This document shows positions 19,461 to 64,000 of a stretch of DNA of 64,000 nt, one piece after another. How positions within the stretch are numbered: the stretch's first letter is position 1; each line of letters opens with the position of its first letter. Under the pieces are notes generated by a model. That model searched no databases. It was not told where the DNA came from and saw only the letters and a program-made list of their open reading frames with translations. Source of the DNA: Candidatus Woesearchaeota archaeon (lineage in GTDB: Archaea; Nanobdellota; Nanobdellia; Woesearchaeales; UBA9642); assembly GCA_041658255.1 (NCBI GenBank), contig JBBAAQ010000005.1, positions 1,544 through 65,543 on the forward strand, in the 5' to 3' direction. A program made the translations under genes and the position numbers.

Positions 19461-19503
19461 TGATTAAGATAAATGATGATTAAATAAATGATGATTAAGA
19501 TAA
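19457..19503 (+). repeat. three tandem copies of ATGATGATTAA(G)ATAA spanning the stop of one gene and the start of the next
   Basis: Copies at 19457-19472, 19473-19487 and 19488-19503. Only the third opens the 2513-aa frame; the first two are 8- and 4-codon mini-ORFs. Confidence 0.9.
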
Positions 19504-22500
19504 ATGGATTATGGAATGTGAAACAGTTCGTGCGTCTTGGATTCCTATTCTTAGTACTGGGCTTGTTCTGTATCTATTCTTCACCGGATGCTGCAGCCTC
19601 GATCAATGCAAGCGATTCACAATATCTTATCGCCATCGGGCCAGTTACTGGTTCAACTTCTGCGAATTACGTGTATCTCTCAATATTTAATCCTGCAACA
19701 TCCAACAATTCAGTCGTAATCAATTATTTATTTCTCCGGAACACCGCAGTCAATACTGCTACGTATCAGAAATTGACCCTGCGTCGTATCAATGCATCGT
19801 CAACAGGAACATTGATTGCACAATCAGATATCCCGAAAAAGAATACTAATTCAGCTAACGCTACAGTCGAGATACGCTATGCAGGACCCGCAGTGACTTA
19901 TCCCAATGGGGTCAATGCGCGGATCATCTCTGTTGTGGGTTCAGGAGCAGCAGGTTCATTAAATGGCTTTAAAGAATTAGTATTTAATGAGACAAATCCA
20001 CTTGTTCTCAGACCAGGCGAAGGAGTCGCACTTTATCAGGAAGCTGCCGGAAGTGCCAACCAGCGTGTCAATCTTCTTGTTGATTGGGAAGAAACAAACA
20101 CCACACCCCAACTCAAGAATGAATATATCATTGCCACACCCAAGGTCGCAATCGCTGCAACAGTCAATTATACTTATCACTCGTTCTTTAATCCTGCAGC
20201 ATCAGGAAAGACTTATCTTGTCAAGAGAATCGATATTAATGTTGATTGTAATGGCGCTGCAGTCTATACTAATACTATGGCGCTGCGCCGAATTACTGCG
20301 GCAAGCGTAGGAACACTCATTACACAATCAGATATTCCGAAAAAAGATACTGCAACAAATGTCAGCACTGCTGAATTGCGCAACACTAACCCGACAGTCA
20401 CACATGTCGGGACTGCAAACGCGCGATTACGCCAAGTAACTCCCTGCGGCGCAGCAAACCAGCATGGTGCATATAAAGAAACACTTTTTGAGTCCAGCGA
20501 GGAGCCACTCATTATTAAGCAGGGCGAAGGACTCGCATTAATATCAGAAACTGCAGGGGATGTCAGTCAACTTGTCGGTACGCAAATGGAATGGGAAGAG
20601 ATATCAAACACCACTACACCCCTGACAGAAAACGAATTGATGTATGCATCCCCTCCAGTCACGACCACTGCAACAATCAATTATACTTATCATTCGATAT
20701 TCAATCCTGTCGGCAGCGGCAAGGTAGCAATTATTAAGCGTATTGAAATACGTATGGACGCGGGAACTGCCAACAAAGTCTATCAGCCTGTCAATCTCCA
20801 GCGCATTAATGCCGCAAGTGCAGGAACACTTATTACACAATCAGATATCATGAAAAAAAATTCTGCGACAAATACGACAGTCATGGAATTACGGTATAAT
20901 GGTCCGACAGTAACATTAAATGGATCGACGGATGCAGCTATTCTTACCATAACTGGACCGGGAGCTGTCGGCCAATTGCGCTCGCGTAAAGAATTAATAT
21001 TCAATAATGAGAAGATTGTCCTGCGACCTGGAGAGGGGCTTGCAATGTATTCTGAAACAGCAGGTGGTGCGAGCCAGTATGCAAAACTTTATGTTGACTG
21101 GGAAGAAGAGCCACTTGCAGCAGTACCTGCAGCGCAAAACGAGTATGCGCTTAATGTTGGGTCGTTCAATGGTGTGACAACTTCAGGATATAATTATACT
21201 TCATTCTTTAATCCTGCACTGAGTAATGTGACTGCGATTGTAACTAAGATATTTATGGATATTGATACTGCGGGAACAGCAGTCTATATCCCGTTCACCA
21301 TTAGGCGCATAACAAGCGCATCAGGTGGAACATCCATTGCACAATCAGATATTCCAAAAAAGAATACTGGTTCAAATGTAAGTATTATGGAATGGCGTTA
21401 TGCTAATCCTACAGTGGCATATGTCGGATCAAGTAATGCGCGTATTGAAAGTGTGCAAAGTCCAGGCGCTTTAGGGACGGCTGTTGCACCACAATTGACC
21501 GGATGGCAAGACGATATATTCACAAAGGAACCCTATGTGATAAAACCCGGCGAAGGATTGACACTCTATCAGGAAGCAGCAGGAGATGTGGATTTTCGGG
21601 TGAAGTTCATGCTCGTATGGAAAGAAATATCTTACGCACTCACTCCGGCAACAGAAGGAAACTACATGACATCCATTGGGCCAGTGAGTGGATCGCTCAC
21701 TAATAATTATGTCTATGCAACAATCTATAATCCCCTGAATTCAAGCCGCGATTATATTATGAGGCGAATTGATGTTCGATCAGACAGGGTCGGCGCCTTG
21801 ACTGCTCCTGGTTACATTCCTGTTTCATTGCAACGGATTAATTCATCGAGCGGCGGGACACTTATGTCGTTGTCAGATATCCTGCCAAAGAATACTGCGA
21901 CAAATACTTCAACTGCTGAACTGCGCTCTGCAGGACCGACGGTAAATTTTGTCGGTACCACTGCTTCTGATATGATTGGTGTGATGGCGCCTGGCGCAGT
22001 TGGGCAGGAATATGGAAAGATAGAAATCATATCTGGTAAAGGTGATGAAATTATTCTCCATCCTGGTGAGGGACTCGCAATGTACCAGCAAGGCACTGCA
22101 GGAGACGCCAACATGCGTTACCGCATGGATCTTGTATGGAATGAATCAATCATCGTAACAAATACTGCTCCTACTTTTACGCAGTCTATTGGTGATCAAA
22201 GTATTTCTCATTCTGTGAATTTATCATTACAAGTAAATTGTACTGATTTAGATTTCGATACTATTCTTTATTTTGATAATACTTCTTTATTTGATATTAA
22301 TTCTTCTGGATATATTTTTGATAATCCGACTCAGGCAGAAGCCGGAGTATACAACATTTCCATAACTTGCGGCGATGGTGTGGCAAATACTTCAAGTAGT
22401 TTCTTATATACGATAACAAATAGTGCTCCAACAACTCCTACAACACCTTCTATTACTTCTGGTACGTATCGTAGTGACTCTTTTGTTTCATCGTCGGGTA

Positions 22501-25500
22501 CTGGTTCTTCTGATTCTGATGGTGATTCTTTATCTTACTCTTACCAATTTACTTCCTCGAGTAGTGGTACTATTCTTCAAAGTTTTGGTGTTTCAACTTC
22601 TTACACGACGTGTTCTTCTAATTCTGCTTGTAATAAGACTGGTGATATTAAGGTTCAGGTGAGGGTTTCTGATGGTTCTGCTAATACGGATTCTGCTTTA
22701 AGTTCAGCGAAGGATATTTTGAATACTGCTCCGACACAGCCTTCAGCAGATACCTTAACCCCGACTACTCCTATTATTGGTAATCAGTTTACTATGGGTT
22801 GTTCTGGCAGTACTGATGTTGATCCTGAAGATTCTTTGACATATTTTTATGGTTTGTATGATTTGAATGATTCTGTGTATCGTCAAGCATTTTCTACATT
22901 GGCTACTTATACACTTGTTGCTCCTGTTGATAGTCATGATACTTTCAGGACTGATTGTTATGCGAATGATTCTAGCAATGTGAGTTCTACGAGGACTGGG
23001 ACGACTTTAAGAACAGTATCTAATTCTGCTCCTGTTATGAGTTCTTCTCGTATTTCTCCGTCTACTGCGTATACTAATGATACACTTTTAGGTTATTGTA
23101 ATGCAACAGATGCAGATAATAATAATTTAACATATCATTGGAAGTGGTATTTGAATACTGTGCAGAATACTTCTGGAACGACGTCGAATAATTATTCGCA
23201 AGGGTTAGAGATTAATGTTGCGAATGTTTCAAGCGGTAATCTTTCTGACGGGCAGAATTGGACTCTTTCATGTCAGGCAAACGACAGTTCGTTGACGAGT
23301 AGCTGGTTGAATAGTAGTGTGTTAATGATTAGTCCATATTACGGTTCTTTGAATGTTACAATCACTTCTCCTGCAACAGATATTTCTGTAAATCAGAATT
23401 CTACATTTCAGATTAATGCAACAGTAACCTGCACGGGTGAGACAGGTGCAATCTGTGGAACAGTCTATGCAAATGCGCGATATAATGCGAGTAGTGCAAC
23501 GCCGGATACATTGATTAATACGACGAGTGGAGGAACACCATTATACATGACGGGTAACGGAGGTATGTGTTATCAGGAAAGTGCGAATGAGAGTACGGCA
23601 TGTGGGGGATTAAATACCGGAACATATGCAAATGAATCAACAGCTGGTTGGAATAATCTTAATTATACTATTGATGGAAATTGGAGTACAACAGGAGATA
23701 CTGGTGGACTGGCGGGAGATTCTGCGACACTTTATATAAATTATACAAAACCTTCAAATAGTTTGGATACCAGTGTATGGCGAGTTTCAAATGGTAATTC
23801 AACAGGAGGTGTTTTTATAGTAAATATTTCTTTGCCAATACTCTGCTGGAATTATAGTTCCACAATAATACGGTTGAAAGTAACATCACAACATGGAGCA
23901 TCGACACTTTTTAATGATGTAAAATGGGATTGTTATAATGGCACCGATTATTTAAATCTAAGTAGGACGACTGGTTCAGATCTTGTTTATGAAGAAGCAA
24001 TCTGGTGGAATATTTCTGGAACATCTAATCCACAAACATCTTCTTCAACACTTTCTCAAGGACAATCTTGGAGTATGAATTGGACGGTTAATACGACAGG
24101 AACTACCGGATCGAGTTATTATGTTGATGTACTCTTTAATTCGAGTTATGGTTCGGGTAGTGTTCCAAATAATGATACGGCGAATAGGAAGATGACTGTT
24201 AATAGTGCTCCTGTCTTGAATTCTTCTCGTGTTTCTCCGACGATTGCGTATACGAATGATACACTTCTAGGTTATTGTAATGCAACTGATAGTAATTTAG
24301 ATAATCTCACGTATAATTGGAAGTGGTATTTGAATGCTGTGCAGAATACTACGGGAACAACATCGAGTAATTATACTCAGGGTTTGGAGATTAATGTTGC
24401 TAATGTTTCTAGCGGTAATTTGTCTGTTGGTCAGAATTGGACTCTTTCATGTCAGGCAAACGACAGTTCGTTGACGAGCAGTTGGATGAACAGTTCAGTT
24501 GTTGCTATTCGAGCGGTTCCTGCGGTGTTGTTTGTTTATCCTACTCCTAACAGTGGTACCTCTGCTACCAATACCTCTATTATTGTTAATGCGAGTATTA
24601 ATATTTCTGTGTTAACTAACCTTTCGACTGTTACATGGAATTGGAATGGGACAAATTATACGATGTATAATAATTCTTTAGTGTTGTTGTATAATTTCAA
24701 TAATGTGTCTGTATTCGGCGAGAATGTATCAAGCAATAAGACTTTTGATTCGAGTACGTATGGTAATAATGGTACGTGTCAAGGTATGGGTGCGGGTTGT
24801 AATTATACTCTTGGTAAGTATGGTTCTGGAATAACTTTTGATGGTGTAAATGATTTAGTCAATGTAAGTAATCCCACTTCTTTGAATAATCTTGGTCCTG
24901 CGACGTGGTCGATGTGGGTTAATCGTAATAGTCTTACGAATTATGGTGCATTAATGTATAAGAGCGATAGTAATGTTAATGCGGGTTGGTGGATTGATTT
25001 TAGATCTGATAATGGTGGAGAATTAGGAATTAATATCGTACATTCCACGACTAATATTAGAAGATATACTAACGCGAGCATTCTTGGTGTCGGACAATGG
25101 TTTAATCTAGTTATTACCTGGACTAATGTCTCGAGTTATACTGCAGTAAATATGTACATTAATGGTGTTGAAACCGCATACAGTTGGAATACCACGCCTG
25201 CAGGGAATCATCTTTCTGATGCTGCTGAACCATTAACTATTGGTTATGGAAAAGCAATTACTGGTGGATATTTCAATGGTTCTATTGATGAAGTGATGAT
25301 TTGGAATAGGAATCTTAGTGCGTCAGAGATTAGTCAACTTTACAAATCCAATCTGTATAAGTATAATACAAGTAATTGGCAGTTTACATCCAATCAATCT
25401 AATTTAACGTTAGGCGGTTATACATACTTTGCGTGTGCAGATGATACTTCAGGTGTAAGTAATTGTACAGAGACGAGAACTCTTACAATAACTAATGTTT

Positions 25501-27029
25501 CTAATTTTGCTCCTGTGATGAATTTTTCTCGTATTTCTCCGTCGACTGCGTATACGAATGATACGCTTTTGGGTTATTGTAATGCAACAGATGCAGATAA
25601 TAATAATTTAACATATAATTGGAAGTGGTTCTTGAATGCCGTACAGAATACTACTGGAACGACGACAAATAATTATACTCAAAGTTTAGAGATTAATGTT
25701 GCGAATATTGCTTCTGGAAATCTTTCCATCGGACAGAATTGGACATTCTCGTGTCAGGCAAATGATTCTATAAATATGAGTAGTTGGATGAATAGTTCAG
25801 TTGTTACAATCATCGATACAACGCCACCCAGTGTTCAATTAGATGCGCCGGCACCAAATGATGCTCGCGATCAAGGGCAAATAACATTCACGTACACTCC
25901 TTCTGACCCTCAGTTACAAAATTGCACACTCTATACTAATCGTACGGGTGTATGGATGGCAAATGCAACCAATTCATCACCTATTAATATGTCACAAAAT
26001 AATTTCTTATTGAATTTGAGTTATGGCACCTATCTGTGGAACGTACAATGTTGCGACTCTTTTGCGAATTGTGGATTTGCGCCTGCAAACAGGACTTTGC
26101 AGATCGTAGGAGACTTTGCAATTAGTGATCAGGGTCTCTTATTGAGTTCGCCTAATCCCGTCGAGAATCAAAATATTACGCTATCATCAATTGTCCTTAA
26201 TCTTGGAAATAAATCAGAATCTAATATTCTCGTACGATTCTATGAAGGAGATCCTGATACGACGGGCATTCAGATAGGGAGCGACCAATATTTTAATTTT
26301 TCTGCACTCCAGAATATCACGGTGAATATGACATGGACAACAAAAGTCGGGGGTTATAATCTCTTCGTGAAAGCTGATCCCGCAAATGCAATTGTCGAAT
26401 TCAATGAATCGAATAATAAGGCAAATAAGAGTGTGTATACTGCTGCATGGCAGATCTATTATGGAAATATTACAGGACTTTTTGTATTAGGGACGAACAC
26501 GAATAATACTATTATCGATTGGTTGCCTACAAATCTGTCTGCAAATATTTATATCGCAGATTCTGATTCATCAATCTCTTGGCAATCCCTTAAAGCAATC
26601 ACGAGAAATATAACAGGGAATAGTACGAGTAATACGACGAATGATTTTGAAGAGATAGATACTTGCCTTGCTATTGAGAACCTCACAGATTCAGTTAATG
26701 CAACATATTCGAGTGGCGGTTCACCTATCCAAACAAATAATTATACTATCTATCAGAATAACTTGTCAAATGTTCCGGTCGTGAAGAGCACGAATACGAC
26801 AAATTTTTATTCAGGGATACTCTGGGATAGCGCTGATTCAGGAGATACGTATTATACGTGTAACCCTAATCCACTCTTACGAAAGGACATTATATTTGTG
26901 ACTACGCTTAATGCGCATCAAGCAGGCGCATACGGTACTTATGATTATGAAATACGAATTCCTGCAAAGCTTCGATCATATCGTGGATCGGACGAAACAG
27001 TCAGTTTATATTATGAGACAACAGGCTAA
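19488..27029 (+). CDS. giant secreted adhesin-like protein (2513 aa): 5 novel ~170-aa repeats, Ig/cadherin-like modules, 3 near-identical 100-aa cassettes, a LamG domain and a CARDB-like domain
   Basis: Signal peptide FLFLVLGLFCIYSSPDAAAS. Five repeats each end in PGEG(L/V)A(L/M)Y..(A)G...W(E/K)E. The LamG/ConA-like segment lies at ~nt 24680-25350 (GSGITFDGVNDLV...GYFNGSIDEVMIWNRNLSASEISQLY). The CARDB-like segment lies at ~26110-26440 (NITLSSIVLNLGN...YNLFVKADPANAIVEFNESNN). The protein is extremely rich in sequons. Confidence 0.9.
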   Translation: MMIKINGLWNVKQFVRLGFLFLVLGLFCIYSSPDAAASINASDSQYLIAIGPVTGSTSANYVYLSIFNPATSNNSVVINYLFLRNTAVNTATYQKLTLRRINASSTGTLIAQSDIPKKNTNSANATVEIRYAGPAVTYPNGVNARIISVVGSGAAGSLNGFKELVFNETNPLVLRPGEGVALYQEAAGSANQRVNLLVDWEETNTTPQLKNEYIIATPKVAIAATVNYTYHSFFNPAASGKTYLVKRIDINVDCNGAAVYTNTMALRRITAASVGTLITQSDIPKKDTATNVSTAELRNTNPTVTHVGTANARLRQVTPCGAANQHGAYKETLFESSEEPLIIKQGEGLALISETAGDVSQLVGTQMEWEEISNTTTPLTENELMYASPPVTTTATINYTYHSIFNPVGSGKVAIIKRIEIRMDAGTANKVYQPVNLQRINAASAGTLITQSDIMKKNSATNTTVMELRYNGPTVTLNGSTDAAILTITGPGAVGQLRSRKELIFNNEKIVLRPGEGLAMYSETAGGASQYAKLYVDWEEEPLAAVPAAQNEYALNVGSFNGVTTSGYNYTSFFNPALSNVTAIVTKIFMDIDTAGTAVYIPFTIRRITSASGGTSIAQSDIPKKNTGSNVSIMEWRYANPTVAYVGSSNARIESVQSPGALGTAVAPQLTGWQDDIFTKEPYVIKPGEGLTLYQEAAGDVDFRVKFMLVWKEISYALTPATEGNYMTSIGPVSGSLTNNYVYATIYNPLNSSRDYIMRRIDVRSDRVGALTAPGYIPVSLQRINSSSGGTLMSLSDILPKNTATNTSTAELRSAGPTVNFVGTTASDMIGVMAPGAVGQEYGKIEIISGKGDEIILHPGEGLAMYQQGTAGDANMRYRMDLVWNESIIVTNTAPTFTQSIGDQSISHSVNLSLQVNCTDLDFDTILYFDNTSLFDINSSGYIFDNPTQAEAGVYNISITCGDGVANTSSSFLYTITNSAPTTPTTPSITSGTYRSDSFVSSSGTGSSDSDGDSLSYSYQFTSSSSGTILQSFGVSTSYTTCSSNSACNKTGDIKVQVRVSDGSANTDSALSSAKDILNTAPTQPSADTLTPTTPIIGNQFTMGCSGSTDVDPEDSLTYFYGLYDLNDSVYRQAFSTLATYTLVAPVDSHDTFRTDCYANDSSNVSSTRTGTTLRTVSNSAPVMSSSRISPSTAYTNDTLLGYCNATDADNNNLTYHWKWYLNTVQNTSGTTSNNYSQGLEINVANVSSGNLSDGQNWTLSCQANDSSLTSSWLNSSVLMISPYYGSLNVTITSPATDISVNQNSTFQINATVTCTGETGAICGTVYANARYNASSATPDTLINTTSGGTPLYMTGNGGMCYQESANESTACGGLNTGTYANESTAGWNNLNYTIDGNWSTTGDTGGLAGDSATLYINYTKPSNSLDTSVWRVSNGNSTGGVFIVNISLPILCWNYSSTIIRLKVTSQHGASTLFNDVKWDCYNGTDYLNLSRTTGSDLVYEEAIWWNISGTSNPQTSSSTLSQGQSWSMNWTVNTTGTTGSSYYVDVLFNSSYGSGSVPNNDTANRKMTVNSAPVLNSSRVSPTIAYTNDTLLGYCNATDSNLDNLTYNWKWYLNAVQNTTGTTSSNYTQGLEINVANVSSGNLSVGQNWTLSCQANDSSLTSSWMNSSVVAIRAVPAVLFVYPTPNSGTSATNTSIIVNASINISVLTNLSTVTWNWNGTNYTMYNNSLVLLYNFNNVSVFGENVSSNKTFDSSTYGNNGTCQGMGAGCNYTLGKYGSGITFDGVNDLVNVSNPTSLNNLGPATWSMWVNRNSLTNYGALMYKSDSNVNAGWWIDFRSDNGGELGINIVHSTTNIRRYTNASILGVGQWFNLVITWTNVSSYTAVNMYINGVETAYSWNTTPAGNHLSDAAEPLTIGYGKAITGGYFNGSIDEVMIWNRNLSASEISQLYKSNLYKYNTSNWQFTSNQSNLTLGGYTYFACADDTSGVSNCTETRTLTITNVSNFAPVMNFSRISPSTAYTNDTLLGYCNATDADNNNLTYNWKWFLNAVQNTTGTTTNNYTQSLEINVANIASGNLSIGQNWTFSCQANDSINMSSWMNSSVVTIIDTTPPSVQLDAPAPNDARDQGQITFTYTPSDPQLQNCTLYTNRTGVWMANATNSSPINMSQNNFLLNLSYGTYLWNVQCCDSFANCGFAPANRTLQIVGDFAISDQGLLLSSPNPVENQNITLSSIVLNLGNKSESNILVRFYEGDPDTTGIQIGSDQYFNFSALQNITVNMTWTTKVGGYNLFVKADPANAIVEFNESNNKANKSVYTAAWQIYYGNITGLFVLGTNTNNTIIDWLPTNLSANIYIADSDSSISWQSLKAITRNITGNSTSNTTNDFEEIDTCLAIENLTDSVNATYSSGGSPIQTNNYTIYQNNLSNVPVVKSTNTTNFYSGILWDSADSGDTYYTCNPNPLLRKDIIFVTTLNAHQAGAYGTYDYEIRIPAKLRSYRGSDETVSLYYETTG
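23022..23321 (+). repeat. cassette copy 1 of a ~300-nt intragenic repeat
   Basis: Encodes NSAPVMSSSRISPSTAYTNDTLLGYCNATDADNNNLTYHWKWYLN...NWTLSCQANDSSLTSSWLNSSV. Most nucleotides are identical to the copies at 24201 and 25503. Confidence 0.9.
24201..24500 (+). repeat. cassette copy 2
   Basis: NSAPVLNSSRVSPTIAYTNDTLLGYCNATDSNLDNLTYNWKWYLN...NWTLSCQANDSSLTSSWMNSSV. Confidence 0.9.
25503..25802 (+). repeat. cassette copy 3
   Basis: NFAPVMNFSRISPSTAYTNDTLLGYCNATDADNNNLTYNWKWFLN...NWTFSCQANDSINMSSWMNSSV. Confidence 0.9.
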
Positions 27030-27039
27030 TATGAAATCC

Positions 27040-27420
27040 TATGCAAGCATCTTTACCGCAGCTCGTCGATAAAAACATCGAGCTCGTCGCGAGGGGTTGC
27101 TCCATACGGGAACGCAGAGCTAAGAGGATAATACATCTGTTAGCGAGGACGGATGCTTGCAAAAATTAAGAGGGTTTCGTATTAGCCGAGACAACATAAA
27201 ACTTTTTAAACAACAGAATTCCACTTATCTATGATGGGTGGTCGAAGTGGAATCTGCTGTGCTCAGGAATCACCGGTCGTGGAATTCTGAGCGCAACAAA
27301 ATCAATGATTTTGTGCGCAAGAAAAGCTGTGCTTTTCTTTGCGTCAAGAACCACATAATATTTCATTAACTAAGCAGTCATGCCACCAGTCTGTGACCGG
27401 TGGTTCTTGACATGAGAATG
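27040..27420. other. GC-enriched, multi-hairpin intergenic region; candidate structured ncRNA or regulatory array of unknown family
   Basis: There are five long perfect or near-perfect helices, several mutually exclusive (coordinates in the findings). No ORF of 60 aa or more occurs on either strand. The promoter-like TATATATAGTATATT for the next gene lies downstream of the region. Confidence 0.3.
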
Positions 27421-27488
27421 GGGTGTACTATATATAGTATATTGGACTAGGGGTGGAGAAGAGGTGAAACTATTACTTCTCAAAAAAT

Positions 27489-28427
27489 ATGACTGATCAT
27501 GCGCTACAATCAAAGAAGGATGATGATGTTGCATATGATAAAGATATAAAATCAGGTGCGATCCCTAATCCTCCACGAACACTTCCAGAACTCGCAAAAA
27601 ATCTTTATGATACAAAAAATCTTTATGATACCTCGAATAATTCGTATAATTCTTCAGGAACAGCACCCCTAAATTCTTCTGCGCAAACCATGCAAAAACC
27701 TTTAAGCGCGCCAATGTCGGCCCCGTTACAACCAGTCGATATGTCTTTTATTCGCCAATCGAATACTGCACCGTCGGTCTCGCCCGCAGTATCATCTATG
27801 GCAACACAAGAACAACTGATCGTGCCGCAAGGAGCTATACGATCTTCATCGATGAATGCAGGAAATGCAATGATTTATTCTCAGCAATATCCTTCTCAAA
27901 ATCATCCTCAAAATCCTCTTCAACCCATTATTATTCAGATGCCGTCACCATCTGCGCCACAAATATATATAGTGCCGTATCCCGTGTCCAGTAGTTCAAC
28001 AGGAAATCCGATAGGGGCTAATGAGAGTACACTTCAATTAATCCAGCTTATTGCGCAGATATTAAAATTATCTCTTCCGGGTGATATTTCTATGATCACT
28101 TCCGCTCCTAATTTTTTTTCAAATCCTGTGGCGTCGACAAATCCCGCACCTCTCGTAGATAAAGCCGCAGTGCAAACAATATTTCTTGATGATCTCTCAA
28201 AATTCTTTTATTTGCGCGACGGTGTTGTGTTACGTTCACTTCCTCAACTTGCGTATCATCTTCGTGCAATGTCTGATGAGGAATTTTCATATCACGTTAC
28301 AAACGAAAAAAATGATTTTGCGAATTGGGTAAGAGACGTTTTTGCACTTCCCGAATTTGCAGAAGAAATTTCTCGTATACAAAGTAAGAATAAACTTGCA
28401 GATTTCTTGATGAGAACAATTTTTTAG
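27489..28427 (+). CDS. low-complexity (S/P/Q-rich) protein with a C-terminal NDFANW domain
   Basis: 312 aa. The C-terminus FFYLRDGVVLRSLPQLAYHLRAMSDEEFSYHVTNEKNDFANWVRDVF is homologous to the C-terminus of the 13939..17622 ATPase. Confidence 0.7.
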   Translation: MTDHALQSKKDDDVAYDKDIKSGAIPNPPRTLPELAKNLYDTKNLYDTSNNSYNSSGTAPLNSSAQTMQKPLSAPMSAPLQPVDMSFIRQSNTAPSVSPAVSSMATQEQLIVPQGAIRSSSMNAGNAMIYSQQYPSQNHPQNPLQPIIIQMPSPSAPQIYIVPYPVSSSSTGNPIGANESTLQLIQLIAQILKLSLPGDISMITSAPNFFSNPVASTNPAPLVDKAAVQTIFLDDLSKFFYLRDGVVLRSLPQLAYHLRAMSDEEFSYHVTNEKNDFANWVRDVFALPEFAEEISRIQSKNKLADFLMRTIF

Positions 28428-37114: not shown

Positions 37115-37262
37115 TCTATACTCACAGACAATAATATTCATACAACATGTTGTCTGTTCGTAATACATAAAAATTGCAACACAATTTTTAGTACAAGAAA
37201 TGCGATGCATTTCTTTGTAAGCAAATGACATATTCGTATAAAAAATTGTGTCATTTGCTATA
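37115..37262. repeat. intergenic repeat element, copy 2, with a 54-nt insertion carrying two extra perfect hairpins
   Basis: The insert (37166-37219) contains AAAAATTG-CAACA-CAATTTTT and AGAAATGC-GAT-GCATTTCT. Module I carries the IR ACAGACAA (37124-37131) / TTGTCTGT (37150-37157). Confidence 0.9.
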
Positions 37263-48721: not shown

Positions 48722-48839
48722 TGGGTCGGATGGAATTTGAATCCATGACATCTACGGTTCGAAGAATGCGCGGCATTCTTTGCTGTTTGCCGCGACAAAC
48801 ACTTCAGCGTAGCGCTCTCCCAGGCTGAGCTACCGACCC
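48722..48839 (-). tRNA. tRNA-Phe (GAA) with a 44-nt intron at the canonical 37/38 position
   Basis: GGGUCGG/CCGACCC acceptor stem, GCUC-AGCCUGGGA-GAGC D arm, CUACG/CGUAG anticodon stem, anticodon GAA (complement of 48803-48805), AUGGA-UUCAAAU-UCCAU T arm and discriminator A. The intron spans 48758-48801, with anticodon GAAG pairing to intron CUUC. CCA is not encoded. Confidence 0.9.
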
Positions 48840-63064: not shown

Positions 63065-64000
63065 ATGAGAGCAATAAAAGACCCAAGAAACCCACAAAAC
63101 AGTGTAAAAAACACCAAAGACTATATCGCCCTAGCCGATATAAGTACCGAACAAAAAGAGCTATTAAGCGCGTACTTTAGGTCCTTAATGGCGTCGGAAG
63201 GCAACAAGACAAAAAGCGCTCATACAGAGAGGTGCCATATTCGCTGTAAAAGGCTTTGCAGAATATGTAAAAAAACCATTACGAGAGGTAATTAAGGACG
63301 ATATCATAAATTACACTATTCACCTAAGAGAACGAGGTCTAAAAGAGTCCACTAGAGAATTCTACAAGCTAAGAATAAAACTATTCTATAAATGGGTAGA
63401 TGGAGGATATACGTCTAGAGTTGATTGGATAAAAAAAACGGACATAAAAAAGGACTTATCAGAAACAGACCTGATACAACCAACAGAAATACGTAAAATG
63501 GTTGAAATCTGTGAGAATGCCAGAGATAAAGCACTAGTAAGCGGGCTATATGAAAGTGGGGTCAGAATCTCAGAATGGTTAGGTGTAAAAATCAAAGATA
63601 TAATATTTGATGATTACGGCGCAAAGATAAAGGTAACAGGAAAGACAGGAACAAGACAGATAAGACTAATCGACTCAGTACCTTACCTCATAGAATGAAT
63701 AAATCAGCATCCATACAAAACAGATAATGGTAGGTACTTATTCATTAATTTTGCATCAAACTATTATGGAAGAAACCTATTCCTAGGAACTGTAGGAACA
63801 ATGCTAAGAAAATACGCGAAAAGAACAGGAGTAAACAAAAAAATATATCCACACTTATTAAGACATAGTAGATTAACGTGGTTGGCCCAAAGAGAAAACT
63901 TTAATGAAAGAGATCTAAGAATATTCGCGGGGTGGTCAGCATCATCAGACATGCCCAACACATACCTGCACTATAGTGAGGAAGAAGTAGATAAAAAACT
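63065..64000 (+). pseudogene. tyrosine recombinase/integrase (XerC/D-phage integrase family), disrupted; runs off the right edge
   Basis: LVSGLYESGVRISE (catalytic Arg), HLLRHS and NTYLHY motifs. A frame change is needed within the A5 run at 63211-63215, and an in-frame TGA sits at 63696-63698 (PYLIE*INQHP). Confidence 0.8.

Follow-up and report, generated by a model that had tools for sequence, protein, structure and literature searches.

A hairpin-rich spacer in a Woesearchaeota-type archaeon is probably a pile-up of non-autonomous mobile DNA, with a MITE beside an IS200-type PATE

The window analyzed here is a 64,000-nt stretch from the ~1.44 Mb genome of a DPANN (Woesearchaeota-type) archaeon, in which positions 27040-27420 occupy a spacer between two genes. 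A sequence-only reading had proposed that these ~380 nt form a single novel structured RNA. Our analysis points instead to non-autonomous mobile elements piled up at one place, with a MITE (element A) standing beside an IS200-type PATE (element B) that carries a 50-nt insert; PATEs are palindrome-associated elements of IS200/IS605-type transposons, defined in Haloquadratum walsbyi (PMC3119063). We put the probability that the spacer is mobile DNA of this kind, and not a new regulatory RNA, at roughly 85%. The region divides into three independent insertions (A, B and the insert in B), and each is also found on its own at other sites, where its ends are sharp and its flanks unrelated. Elsewhere in the genome there are 2 more copies of the interval 27030-27208; for 27205-27415 the genome contains ~10 full copies in addition to fragments, and the flanks of all these are unrelated. 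The features are as follows.

19488..27029, + strand: gene for a 2513-aa surface protein, whose final GGC codon and TAA stop come from element A
27015..27023: left copy of the element A TSD, 9 bp, GAGACAACA, 100% identical to the right copy
27024..27187, no strand assigned: element A, a 164-nt MITE with TIRs, TSD and three genome copies
27024-27040 and 27171-27187: TIRs of element A (GGCTAATATGAAATCCT and AGGGTTTCGTATTAGCC), 17 nt, 88% complementary
27042-27051 with 27152-27161: internal helix of element A, 10 bp, perfect
27188..27196: right copy of the element A TSD, 9 bp, GAGACAACA
27205..27209, + strand: left-flank motif TT(T)AA, presumed target or transposon-adjacent motif
27208..27412, + strand: element B, a probable 205-nt IS200-group PATE (155-nt core and 50-nt insert), 5′ boundary uncertain by up to 3 nt (27208-27211)
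27214-27224 with 27279-27289, + strand: long-range helix P1 (CAGAATTCCAC with GTGGAATTCTG), 11 bp, perfect; 97.1% of cells paired, 4 of 7 pairs changed on both sides
27247-27256, + strand: weaker, local alternative partner for P1, 88.7% paired; in this sequence the second partner of 27214-27224 falls at 27245-27253
27221..27241, + strand: left-end subterminal hairpin CCACTTATC-TAT-GATGGGTGG, 95.3% of cells paired, 3 pairs compensated
27263..27273 with 27400-27410, + strand: P2alt, alternative 5′ partner of the 3′ end, 98.8% of cells paired
27291..27340, + strand: nested double-hairpin insert, 50 nt (hairpins 27291-27318 and 27319-27339), edges ambiguous by 3 nt (GCG on both sides)
27343-27354 with 27400-27411, + strand: outer right-end helix P3 (GTCAAGAACCAC with GTGGTTCTTGAC), 12 bp, perfect; 97.5% paired
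27383..27403, + strand: right-end subterminal hairpin CCACCAGTC-TGT-GACCGGTGG, 94.8% paired, 3 pairs compensated
27404..27412, + strand: right-end tail TTCTTGACA, 9 nt, reaching the element boundary

The structural observations that had drawn attention to this region were sound. Every helix listed in the sequence-only reading is present in the DNA; the proposed pairing of CACCGGTC with GACCGGTG lies inside a match between 27263-27278 and 27395-27410 (16 nt, 88% complementary). Within the insert, 27296-27304 pairs with 27306-27314 over 9 bp, a helix that GCGC/GCGC pairing lengthens with a single bulged A, and 27319-27327 pairs perfectly with 27331-27339, also over 9 bp. The reported G+C enrichment was borne out (0.42-0.44, compared with a genome value of 0.375 and with 0.25-0.30 in the intergenic spacer that follows), as was the lack of an ORF, the overlapping frames being only 42-54 aa long. 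On the + strand, the region gave an MFE of -134.9 kcal/mol against -103.0 +/- 5.9 for shuffled sequences (z -5.42), and the - strand likewise beat its shuffles (z -5.31). The view that the region falls in no known RNA class agrees with a scan of Rfam 15 covariance models, which returned nothing at gathering score and a best E of 3.7 with permissive filters (E<=10), and which we count as no match even at E<=10; the HEARO and IS605-orfB motifs were among the models without a match in the region. RNase P RNA and SRP RNA were rejected as identities, the genome's own being located at G000:C6:23906-24219 and C1:162414-162687, respectively, and ARAGORN detected no tRNA-like structure in the region.

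Element A entered the 2513-aa gene precisely at its stop codon. Removing A along with one copy of the TSD restores ...TAT TAT GAG ACA ACA TAA, so that the protein, which now ends in ...YYETTG*, once ended in ...YYETT*. The two other copies in the genome lie at G000:C2:66974-67137 (95%) and C13:24223-24386 (82%), and a copy in the same-genus genome G005 has compensated TIRs, in which the two arms co-vary. A 9-bp TSD was present in 4/4 copies checked, and each was different (GAGACAACA, AAAGATATA, AAATAAAGA and, for G005, GAAGTGTAG). The 17-nt inverted repeat at 27024-27040 and 27171-27187 had been missing from the earlier list of helices. By this account, a DDE-type transposase acting in trans would recognize the 17-nt inverted termini and move A by cut-and-paste, a staggered cut would have made the 9-bp duplication, and the long hairpin would represent the two termini and internal palindromic sequence, nothing more. 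Element A resembles known MITEs in its small size, 17-nt TIRs, 9-bp TSD, absence of an ORF and presence in several copies, and its termini covary between species. It differs from them in that no parent insertion sequence with matching termini was found in the genome: a search for the terminus GGCTAATATGAAATCC gave the three MITE copies and nothing else. At contig ends there are unassembled insertion sequences that begin with GGCTCC or GGCGCC, and these share only GGC (in some cases GGCT) with the terminus of A.

The boundaries of element B are of a different type. In 60 distinct insertions, T occupies position -3 of the left flank in 54, -2 in 60 and -1 in 42, while the right flank is motif-free, and B therefore has no TSD. 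GACA in the tail is invariant in 60/60 insertions, and sequences past the tail are unrelated between copies. The tips, 5′-AAACAACAGAATT... and ...GGTTCTTGACA-3′, are not complementary, so B is without terminal inverted repeats. What it carries are two end hairpins, both of the form CCAC-NNN-TCTNTGA-NNN-GTGG and in the same orientation, one 11-13 nt inside the left end and the other 9 nt inside the right end. The element is built of three related stem units (CAGAATTCCAC, CAGGAATCAC and CAAGAACCAC) and their complements. Its length ranges from 123 to 290 nt, too short for a transposase, 43-nt terminal-only forms exist, and no recurring ORF family was found beside 117 right-end matches. Copies in this genome are 95-99% alike. 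A cut after TTT, TTTAA or TTTAAA is in each case compatible with the flank and disrupted-gene data. We considered the TTTAAA junction as a TATA box and dropped it, since a transcript starting ~25 nt downstream would lose the covarying 5′ arm of P1.

The 50-nt insert is absent from 155-nt core copies; in this genome only copies C5, C9 and C20 have it. Copies in G004 also carry the insert, with hairpin-preserving changes, and one of its hairpins recurs at four other loci. Another type of insert interrupts the left-end hairpin of B (G000:C1:168809 and C4:50786). These observations suggest that 50-54-nt double-hairpin inserts are independently mobile, and the double hairpin in the present copy would have entered B after B was formed.

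As for its distribution, B was found in 47/301 sampled genomes and 41/216 genera of the order, with >116 matches in Woesearchaeota, Pacearchaeota and Nanoarchaeota MAGs. Its sites are non-orthologous, same-genus genomes lacking B at orthologous positions, and its copies flank unrelated genes with no conserved leader position. Between co-directional genes, 17 insertions are in the sense orientation and 3 antisense (p 0.0026), and 9/20 touch or overlap the stop codon of the gene that precedes them on the same strand. Three ORFs take their last nine residues from B copies. One copy truncates a XerA-like recombinase gene ahead of the catalytic Tyr. Using its reading frame and the LLGH-4 aa-TT spacing, which is invariant in 11 homologues, we reconstructed the empty site, and the result is a 152-nt insertion without duplication. 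Direct searches for empty sites gave the following: contigs encoding identical proteins had the same arrangement or were broken inside B, no paralogous joined flanks were found, and in same-genus comparisons synteny was broken. Viral contigs contained no exact match to either end of B.

Covariation had been proposed as a check on the RNA reading. For element B, the 3′ two-thirds of the region, pairs are kept by compensatory changes, and this includes the mutually exclusive partners; the idea of one RNA did not survive. Overall, pairing holds in 96.1% of the cells of B helices, with changes on both sides in 11 pairs (38 cells), compared with <=48.5% paired and <=6 both-side-changed cells in slid controls. 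Alignment column 63 covaries with column 162 in 6 sequences, and column 101 does likewise; the three columns change jointly, preserving both alternative helices. Single-side changes in P2alt are all of the G-U type. Mispairs in B helices comprise 49 G:T and 20 A:C, an excess that, as judged from the alignment, favors folding of the + strand.

The connection between B and a transposase comes from other genomes. Members of a Y1_Tnp clade (PF01797) are flanked by B-type ends in G116, G302, G249, G264, G282, G285, G234 and G074, all of the same order. These relatives are ~0.7-kb IS200-type units with tnpA between B-type ends, and they too start after GTTTAA. The G302 element begins with TCAGAATTCCACCGGTTCTTTGACCGGTGG directly after GGTTTAA and ends with CCGCCGGTCTCTGACCGGCGGTTGTTTAA; the right end in G116 reads ...GATGCCACCGGTCAGAGACCGGTGGTTCTTCAC. 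The right-end hairpin of B follows the Y1 tnpA in G116, G264, G282, G285 and others, and in the transposase-bearing relatives it is bracketed by an outer helix equivalent to P3. Because Y1 genes in other genomes share the end hairpins of B, we interpret B as a PATE. Y1 genes are also commoner in genomes with B (27/47 versus 75/254; odds ratio 3.2), an association that may reflect general mobile-element load, and B was present in only 5/15 genomes with the matching Y1 clade (p 0.07).

Searches of this genome for Y1_Tnp, TnpB Zn-ribbon, IS110 DEDD and rve domains returned none. Many contigs of the bin end in shared IS termini and the interiors of multi-copy insertion sequences are missing, and the absence of Y1 and TnpB here is therefore weak evidence. 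The recombinases that it does encode are one resolvase and two tyrosine recombinases; one of the two tyrosine recombinases is the victim of a B insertion, and was rejected as its mobilizer. Other candidates were also set aside. TnpB occurs in 7/41 relatives, of which 0 have B. The resident IS200 elements of G004, G019, G010 and G033 have different ends (GGATAC-hairpin ... GAGGTTCAT) and were rejected as parents of B. Small contigs, considered as collapsed insertion sequences, hold housekeeping genes only. Integron attC or dif-like sites were dropped: copies are dispersed and not arrayed, they lack a GTTRRRY core, and hairpin centers of 3 nt are too short for the crossover region of a tyrosine recombinase.

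In the mechanism that we propose, B would derive from an IS200-group insertion sequence without retaining its transposase. On the model of IS608, a Y1 HUH transposase would bind the single-stranded top strand at its two similar subterminal hairpins, cutting on the left 3′ of TT(T)AA and on the right after the ...TTGACA tail. B would then be released as a single-stranded circle and pasted 3′ of another TT(T)AA without duplication. We infer the cleavage positions, the single-stranded mechanism and the transposase that moved the copies in this genome. The excess of G:T over A:C mispairs in the helices (49 against 20) and the bias in strand or orientation lend indirect support to movement as single-stranded DNA. 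If B moves as a single strand, its conserved helices are most simply explained as transposition-substrate signals inherited from the parent. Two further points count against the PATE reading. The IS608 paradigm requires only two hairpins with short guide and cleavage sequences, and in B the helix P1 and the two partners of the 3′ end are conserved beyond these needs. The other is the 17:3 sense bias.

These same points bear most directly on the possibility that B, although mobile in origin, has been co-opted as a sense-strand RNA, either as a 3′-end module that stabilizes or terminates the upstream mRNA, in the manner of REP/BIME elements in bacteria, or as an orphan guide-type RNA acting in trans, with the 3′ tail (27400-27411) switching between 27263-27273 and 27343-27354. 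Co-option would explain the three-way covariation of columns 63, 101 and 162, the sense bias and the order-wide persistence of B in genomes without a transposase; the frequency of insertions at upstream stop codons and the + strand fold indicated by the mispairs are in keeping with it as well. PATEs, moreover, have been reported often to encode omega-RNAs (PMC10055086). Against this, IS200/IS605 insertion is strand-specific and the TT(T)AA target contains TAA, which can by themselves account for insertions that lie in the sense orientation and at stop codons. Transposase-bearing relatives already have the outer right-end helix, TnpB is missing from the B-bearing genomes among the 41 relatives, no Rfam family matched, HEARO and IS605-orfB included, and copies disrupt genes too. 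We consider co-option unlikely, while keeping it in view. It would be a domestication of another sort if B were a REP/BIME-like repeat, maintained for host physiology by a single-copy RAYT-type Y1 enzyme, and not a decayed insertion sequence. The three related stem units with their complements, the intergenic location and the lack of a linked ORF in 117 instances fit such a repeat, and yet PF01797, the family that covers RAYTs, has no match in the genome, B has ~10 copies per genome and not hundreds, its distribution is patchy (47/301 genomes), and its relatives are ordinary IS200-type units. This makes a REP/BIME-like origin very unlikely.

Still less can be said for the original proposal, in which the whole 380 nt would be one gene-specific structured RNA (a riboswitch, attenuator or leader) for the downstream 312-aa gene. 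The strong predicted fold, the lack of an Rfam match and the position upstream of a same-strand gene speak for it, and the TATA-like TATATATAGTATATT that had been noted is indeed present at ~27429-27443, 45 nt upstream of the ATG at 27489. This box, however, is 3′ of the elements, which places them outside the leader of the next gene and speaks against a switch or attenuator. In addition, the units recur separately at ~13 other loci beside unrelated genes, the two strands fold with equal strength, and the 50-nt hairpin pair is missing from most copies; we give this reading almost no credence. Equally remote is the idea that dimeric proteins bind the palindromes as double-stranded DNA, in the manner of operators or recombinase sites, and so regulate the surface-protein genes on either side. 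Several palindromes are perfect, with 1-3-nt centers, and both strands have the same fold z-scores, whereas identical sequences recur beside unrelated genes, long-range helices 54-130 nt apart covary, the G:T excess is strand-specific, and both A and B bear transposon-type boundaries.

Taken together, the results favor a MITE and a PATE with a nested insert, and one false candidate for a novel class of RNA is thereby removed. In DPANN genomes, a spacer that is rich in hairpins and enriched in G+C can consist of stacked MITE and PATE insertions. Two undescribed non-autonomous families are defined, that of B being tied to IS200-group parents and widespread, in about one-sixth of the sampled genomes of the order. 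In genomes as compact as these, such small elements remodel the ends of genes, through a stop codon in the case of A and through ORF ends and a truncated XerA-like gene in the case of B. The conserved alternative pairings of B could mean that the single-strand structure required at some IS200-type ends exceeds that of the IS608 paradigm, or that these ends double as RNA elements.

Among known systems, B most resembles the PATEs of Haloquadratum (PMC3119063). Both lack inverted termini and target duplication, have similar palindromes near both ends with a longer gap between palindrome and end on the 5′ side than on the 3′ side, are kin to transposase-bearing elements (IS605-type) and host other small repeats; the shortest terminal-only versions are 43 nt in the B family and 52 bp in Haloquadratum. 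B differs in belonging to a DPANN lineage and in having a sequence unlike those of the haloarchaeal families, in having tnpA-only IS200-group parents as opposed to IS1341/TnpB types, and in its extra conserved internal helices with alternative pairings. The SMR-A elements of Haloquadratum, small mobile repeats that enter PATE palindromes (PMC3119063), have a counterpart in the 50-54-nt double-hairpin inserts of B, although the latter are half the size and without clear inverted termini. With IS608, which transposes as a single strand by 'peel and paste' (PMC3201880 for mechanism and end geometry), B shares subterminal hairpins on one strand, the lack of duplication, a Y1 HUH transposase (in its relatives) and a left cleavage site, presumed for B, outside the element at a short conserved motif. 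The right cleavage falls inside the element, ~10 nt 3′ of the hairpin in IS608 and a presumed 9 nt in B, whereas the left hairpin lies 11-13 nt from the end in B and 19 nt in IS608, and the target motif is TT(T)AA as opposed to TTAC. B has no transposase inside, and its likeness to IS608 is one of ends and hairpins. Finally, the REP/BIME repeats of bacteria and their RAYT (TnpA-REP) enzymes (PMC3333891, PMC8266576) parallel B as intergenic hairpin repeats akin to IS200/IS605 ends, with clusters of stem units in alternating orientation and possible effects on mRNA 3′ ends; B, in contrast, has far fewer copies, is archaeal, has no RAYT-type gene detected in its genome, and would move as one 155-nt unit.

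The spacer lies between a 2513-aa ORF (19488-27029, + strand) and a 312-aa ORF (27489-28427, + strand). The sequence-only reading had proposed it as a novel structured RNA or switch, and we found all of the inverted repeats on which this proposal was built, together with a further 17-nt inverted pair that had been overlooked (27024-27040 / 27171-27187). Both strands fold far more strongly than dinucleotide shuffles, with z values of -5.42 (+ strand) and -5.31 (- strand), and the reported G+C enrichment is confirmed at 0.42-0.44, versus a genome mean of 0.375 and 0.25-0.30 in the neighbouring spacer. That the region could not be placed in a known RNA class also agrees with our scan: no Rfam 15 family matched the hairpin-rich spacer at the gathering score, and the best match with permissive filters had E=3.7. 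RNase P RNA and SRP RNA were rejected as identities, as this archaeal genome (G000; its contigs are C1, C2 and so on, with the window on C5) carries its own at G000:C6:23906-24219 and C1:162414-162687, away from the spacer. Elsewhere in the window, Rfam reports a 118-nt tRNA at 48722-48839 (- strand; 52.4 bits) where ARAGORN has no match; it presumably contains an intron.

A BLAST search against the 1.44-Mb assembly divided the region into two repeat units, 27030-27208 and 27205-27415. Copies of the former occur at C2:66980 (95%) and C13:24229 (82-85%). The latter recurs on C9 and C20 (95-96%), in a form shorter by ~50 nt at four loci (C1 three times, C4), as three more full-length copies distinguished by inserts or divergence (C1:168778, C4:50755 and C13), and as fragments on C2 and C10. 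When copies were aligned with their flanks, similarity began and ended abruptly and the flanking DNA was unrelated. The helices are real, but they do not make up a single new RNA or switch: the hairpin-rich spacer is a MITE (element A) adjoining an IS200-type palindrome-associated transposable element (PATE; element B) with a nested hairpin insert, and the two families are new representatives of known kinds. Its features are as follows.

27015-27023 and 27188-27196: 9-bp direct repeat of element A, window copy, GAGACAACA
27024-27187: element A, ends GGCTAATATGAAATCCT / AGGGTTTCGTATTAGCC
27208-27412: element B, 155-nt core AAACAACAG...GGTGGTTCTTGACA
27221-27241: left-end hairpin of B, CCACTTATC-TAT-GATGGGTGG, 11-13 nt from the left end
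27291-27340: nested 50-nt hairpin pair, between GTGGAATTCTGA and GCGTCAAG
27383-27403: right-end hairpin of B, CCACCAGTC-TGT-GACCGGTGG, 9 nt from the right end

Of the helices first listed, that joining 27043-27051 to 27152-27160 is internal to element A, and those at 27291-27318 and 27319-27339 form a secondary insertion within element B.

Element A is a classical MITE. Its 9-bp flanking repeat is copy-specific (AAAGATATA at the C2 copy, AAATAAAGA at the C13 copy), and in a copy from G005, a genome of the same genus, both terminal arms have changed, the internal helix is compensated and the 9-bp repeat is GAAGTGTAG. Insertion took place at the extreme end of the giant 2513-aa gene, changing its C-terminus from ...YYETT to ...YYETTG, with the stop now within element A. 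A search of the window's genome for the element A terminus returned nothing beyond the known copies, and no parent element. Beyond their differing 9-bp duplications, the C5 and C2 copies are followed by 11-12 nt that are nearly identical (27197-27207 and G000:C2:67147-67157) and BRE/TATA-like, (T/A)(A/T)AAACTTTTTA; this common downstream sequence suggests that the MITE A transposase may prefer promoter-proximal targets.

The ends of element B were compared over 60 distinct insertions. T occupies the three positions preceding AAAC in 54/60, 60/60 and 42/60 insertions, respectively, with no constraint further left of this T-rich motif or anywhere right of GACA; this one-sidedness indicates a flank motif at the left only and no target duplication. 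The two end hairpins have the same form and the same orientation. The 50-nt insert is confined to the copies on C5, C9 and C20 and to G004, a genome of the same genus whose version carries changes that preserve the hairpins, and a different 54-nt double hairpin lies inside the left-end hairpin of two other copies. These two copies also have 11 nt upstream in common (GAATTCTTT), next to unrelated upstream proteins. Inserts of 50-54 nt and of one design occur in unrelated repeat families (27291-27340; ~37165-37220; G000:C1:168809-168862; C4:50786-50839), each with two short perfect hairpins whose 5′ arms are A-rich and 3′ arms T-rich, for example AAAAATC-AGA-GATTTTT and AAGAAAAGC-TGT-GCTTTTCTT; hairpin GTCATAAAAATCAGAGATTTTTAGGA is present at four other loci too. 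They may represent a very small mobile unit or cassettes that act as bidirectional oligo-T terminators.

A XerA-like tyrosine recombinase gene (PF00589) has a B copy (G000:C4:82520-82674), in antisense orientation, in its 3′ end. The disrupted ORF ends ...LLGHKNVKNHRSQTGGMTA and stop, a tail translated from element B, and the left flank encodes, in reverse complement, KTTQVYTHVAQNDITRFKGVL and stop. All 11 of 11 homologues have LLGH, 4 residues and TT.IYT(K/H)V, and removal of 152 nt regains their spacing and frame with zero duplicated bases. The reconstructed empty site (arrow, cut) is either ...TCTTTAA(A)↓TTCTTG, with cleavage following TTTAA or TTTAAA, or else ...TCTTT↓ACATTCTTG; GTTTAA before transposase-bearing relatives in two other genomes of the order (G116 and G302) favours the first option. 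The gene (L201:1344-2229, equal to G000:C4:82520-83405, outside the window) is the genome's best XerA-like gene, truncated before the catalytic tyrosine, and its lost C-terminus (KTTQVYTHV...) is still encoded beyond the far side of the B copy. A second PF00589 match, at window positions 63474-63983, falls in a frame of 358 aa that is interrupted by an in-frame TGA and is possibly a pseudogene or a piece of an integrated element.

The structure of element B was assessed in an alignment of 15 diverse copies (A1), using P1 (27214-27220 / 27283-27289), both hairpins and P3 (27343-27350 / 27404-27411). The helices are kept through two-sided changes: 96.1% of cells are paired, with two-sided changes in 11 pairs and 38 cells, versus no more than 48.5% paired and no more than 6 such cells in slid controls; cells of A1 are not independent, so the p-value is indicative only. 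The 3′ end (27400-27410) has an alternative partner in 27263-27273, with 98.8% of cells paired, one position covaries across all three strands (columns 63, 101 and 162), and local alternative pairings are weaker (81% paired). Mispairs comprise 49 G:T versus 20 A:C, an excess that points to the + strand as the one that folds.

Among 28 element B insertions for which both neighbouring genes could be called, those between co-directional genes are 17 sense versus 3 antisense (p 0.0026), and 9/20 adjoin or reach into the stop codon of the same-strand gene upstream. An RNA role could conceivably be the source of this pattern, but sense bias and stop-codon placement can arise without RNA function, since TAA is part of the TT(T)AA target and IS200/IS605 elements insert strand-specifically. 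At G000:C1:168781, C4:50758 and C10:16288, three upstream ORFs continue into the left end of B and share the C-terminus FKQQNSTHL and stop, encoded by the element.

B-type elements occur in 47/301 sampled genomes of the order and 41/216 genera, and an exact-pattern scan for the right end matched more than 116 places in MAGs labelled Woesearchaeota, Pacearchaeota and Nanoarchaeota, plus some probably mislabelled bins. Lengths cluster at ~126, 145-160 and 175-190 nt, with 43-nt terminal-only forms as well. Sites are non-orthologous between genomes of the same genus, and other assemblies carrying the neighbouring gene have the identical arrangement or are broken inside B. At L025:328-1191 (G004:C31), an rve-type (IS481-like) 287-aa transposase gene adjoins a short B-type element; the window's own genome has no rve match.

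Nor does that genome have a match to Y1_Tnp (PF01797, HUH transposase) or TnpB, an absence that is weak evidence because the internal parts of multi-copy insertion sequences did not enter the bin. Many contig ends have shared 127-bp termini (...GAAAGGAGCC and ...GGACGGCGCC, for example). Four groups have identical 127-bp sequences (such as C5:1-127, C2:1-127, C1:1-149 and C4:1-127) that break off at one or other of these two ends, and the shared sequences include an ORF start (MAKEEKLVNKFKRL... / VTKENKLIKKVKR...), so that at least two multi-copy insertion sequences break the assembly. IS200 copies of G004, G019 and G010 were rejected as parents because their ends differ, and no recurrent neighbour was found beside 117 B right ends.

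A B-type right end in G116 has a Y1 gene 68 nt upstream of it, and a search with the protein of that gene identified a clade in ~15 genomes with members bracketed by B-type ends. The G302 element has an intact 177-aa frame between a left end GGTTTAA|TCAGAATTCCACCGGTTCTTTGACCGGTGG and a right end CCGCCGGTCTCTGACCGGCGGTTGTTTAA| (bar, element boundary); right ends in G264, G285 and G234 read (C)ATGCCATCC.GTCT.TTGAC.GGTGG, and that in G282 reads ...GACTGGTGGTTCTTGAT. An outer helix surrounds the right hairpin of the transposase-bearing elements, with covariation (TTGAACACC/GGTGTTCAA, TTGAGCGCC/GGCGCTCAA), and is the counterpart of P3. The flanking of Y1 clade members by B-type ends makes element B, as judged from these sequences, a PATE of this G116/G302-type IS200-group clade. 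Y1 genes of any type are commoner in B-bearing genomes (27/47 versus 75/254; odds ratio 3.2), which may partly reflect overall mobile-element load. The descriptive features of element B fit the definition of a PATE (PMC3119063), and its ends match the geometry of IS608, in which cleavage on the left falls at a conserved motif beyond the element and cleavage on the right ~10 nt 3′ of the hairpin (PMC3201880).
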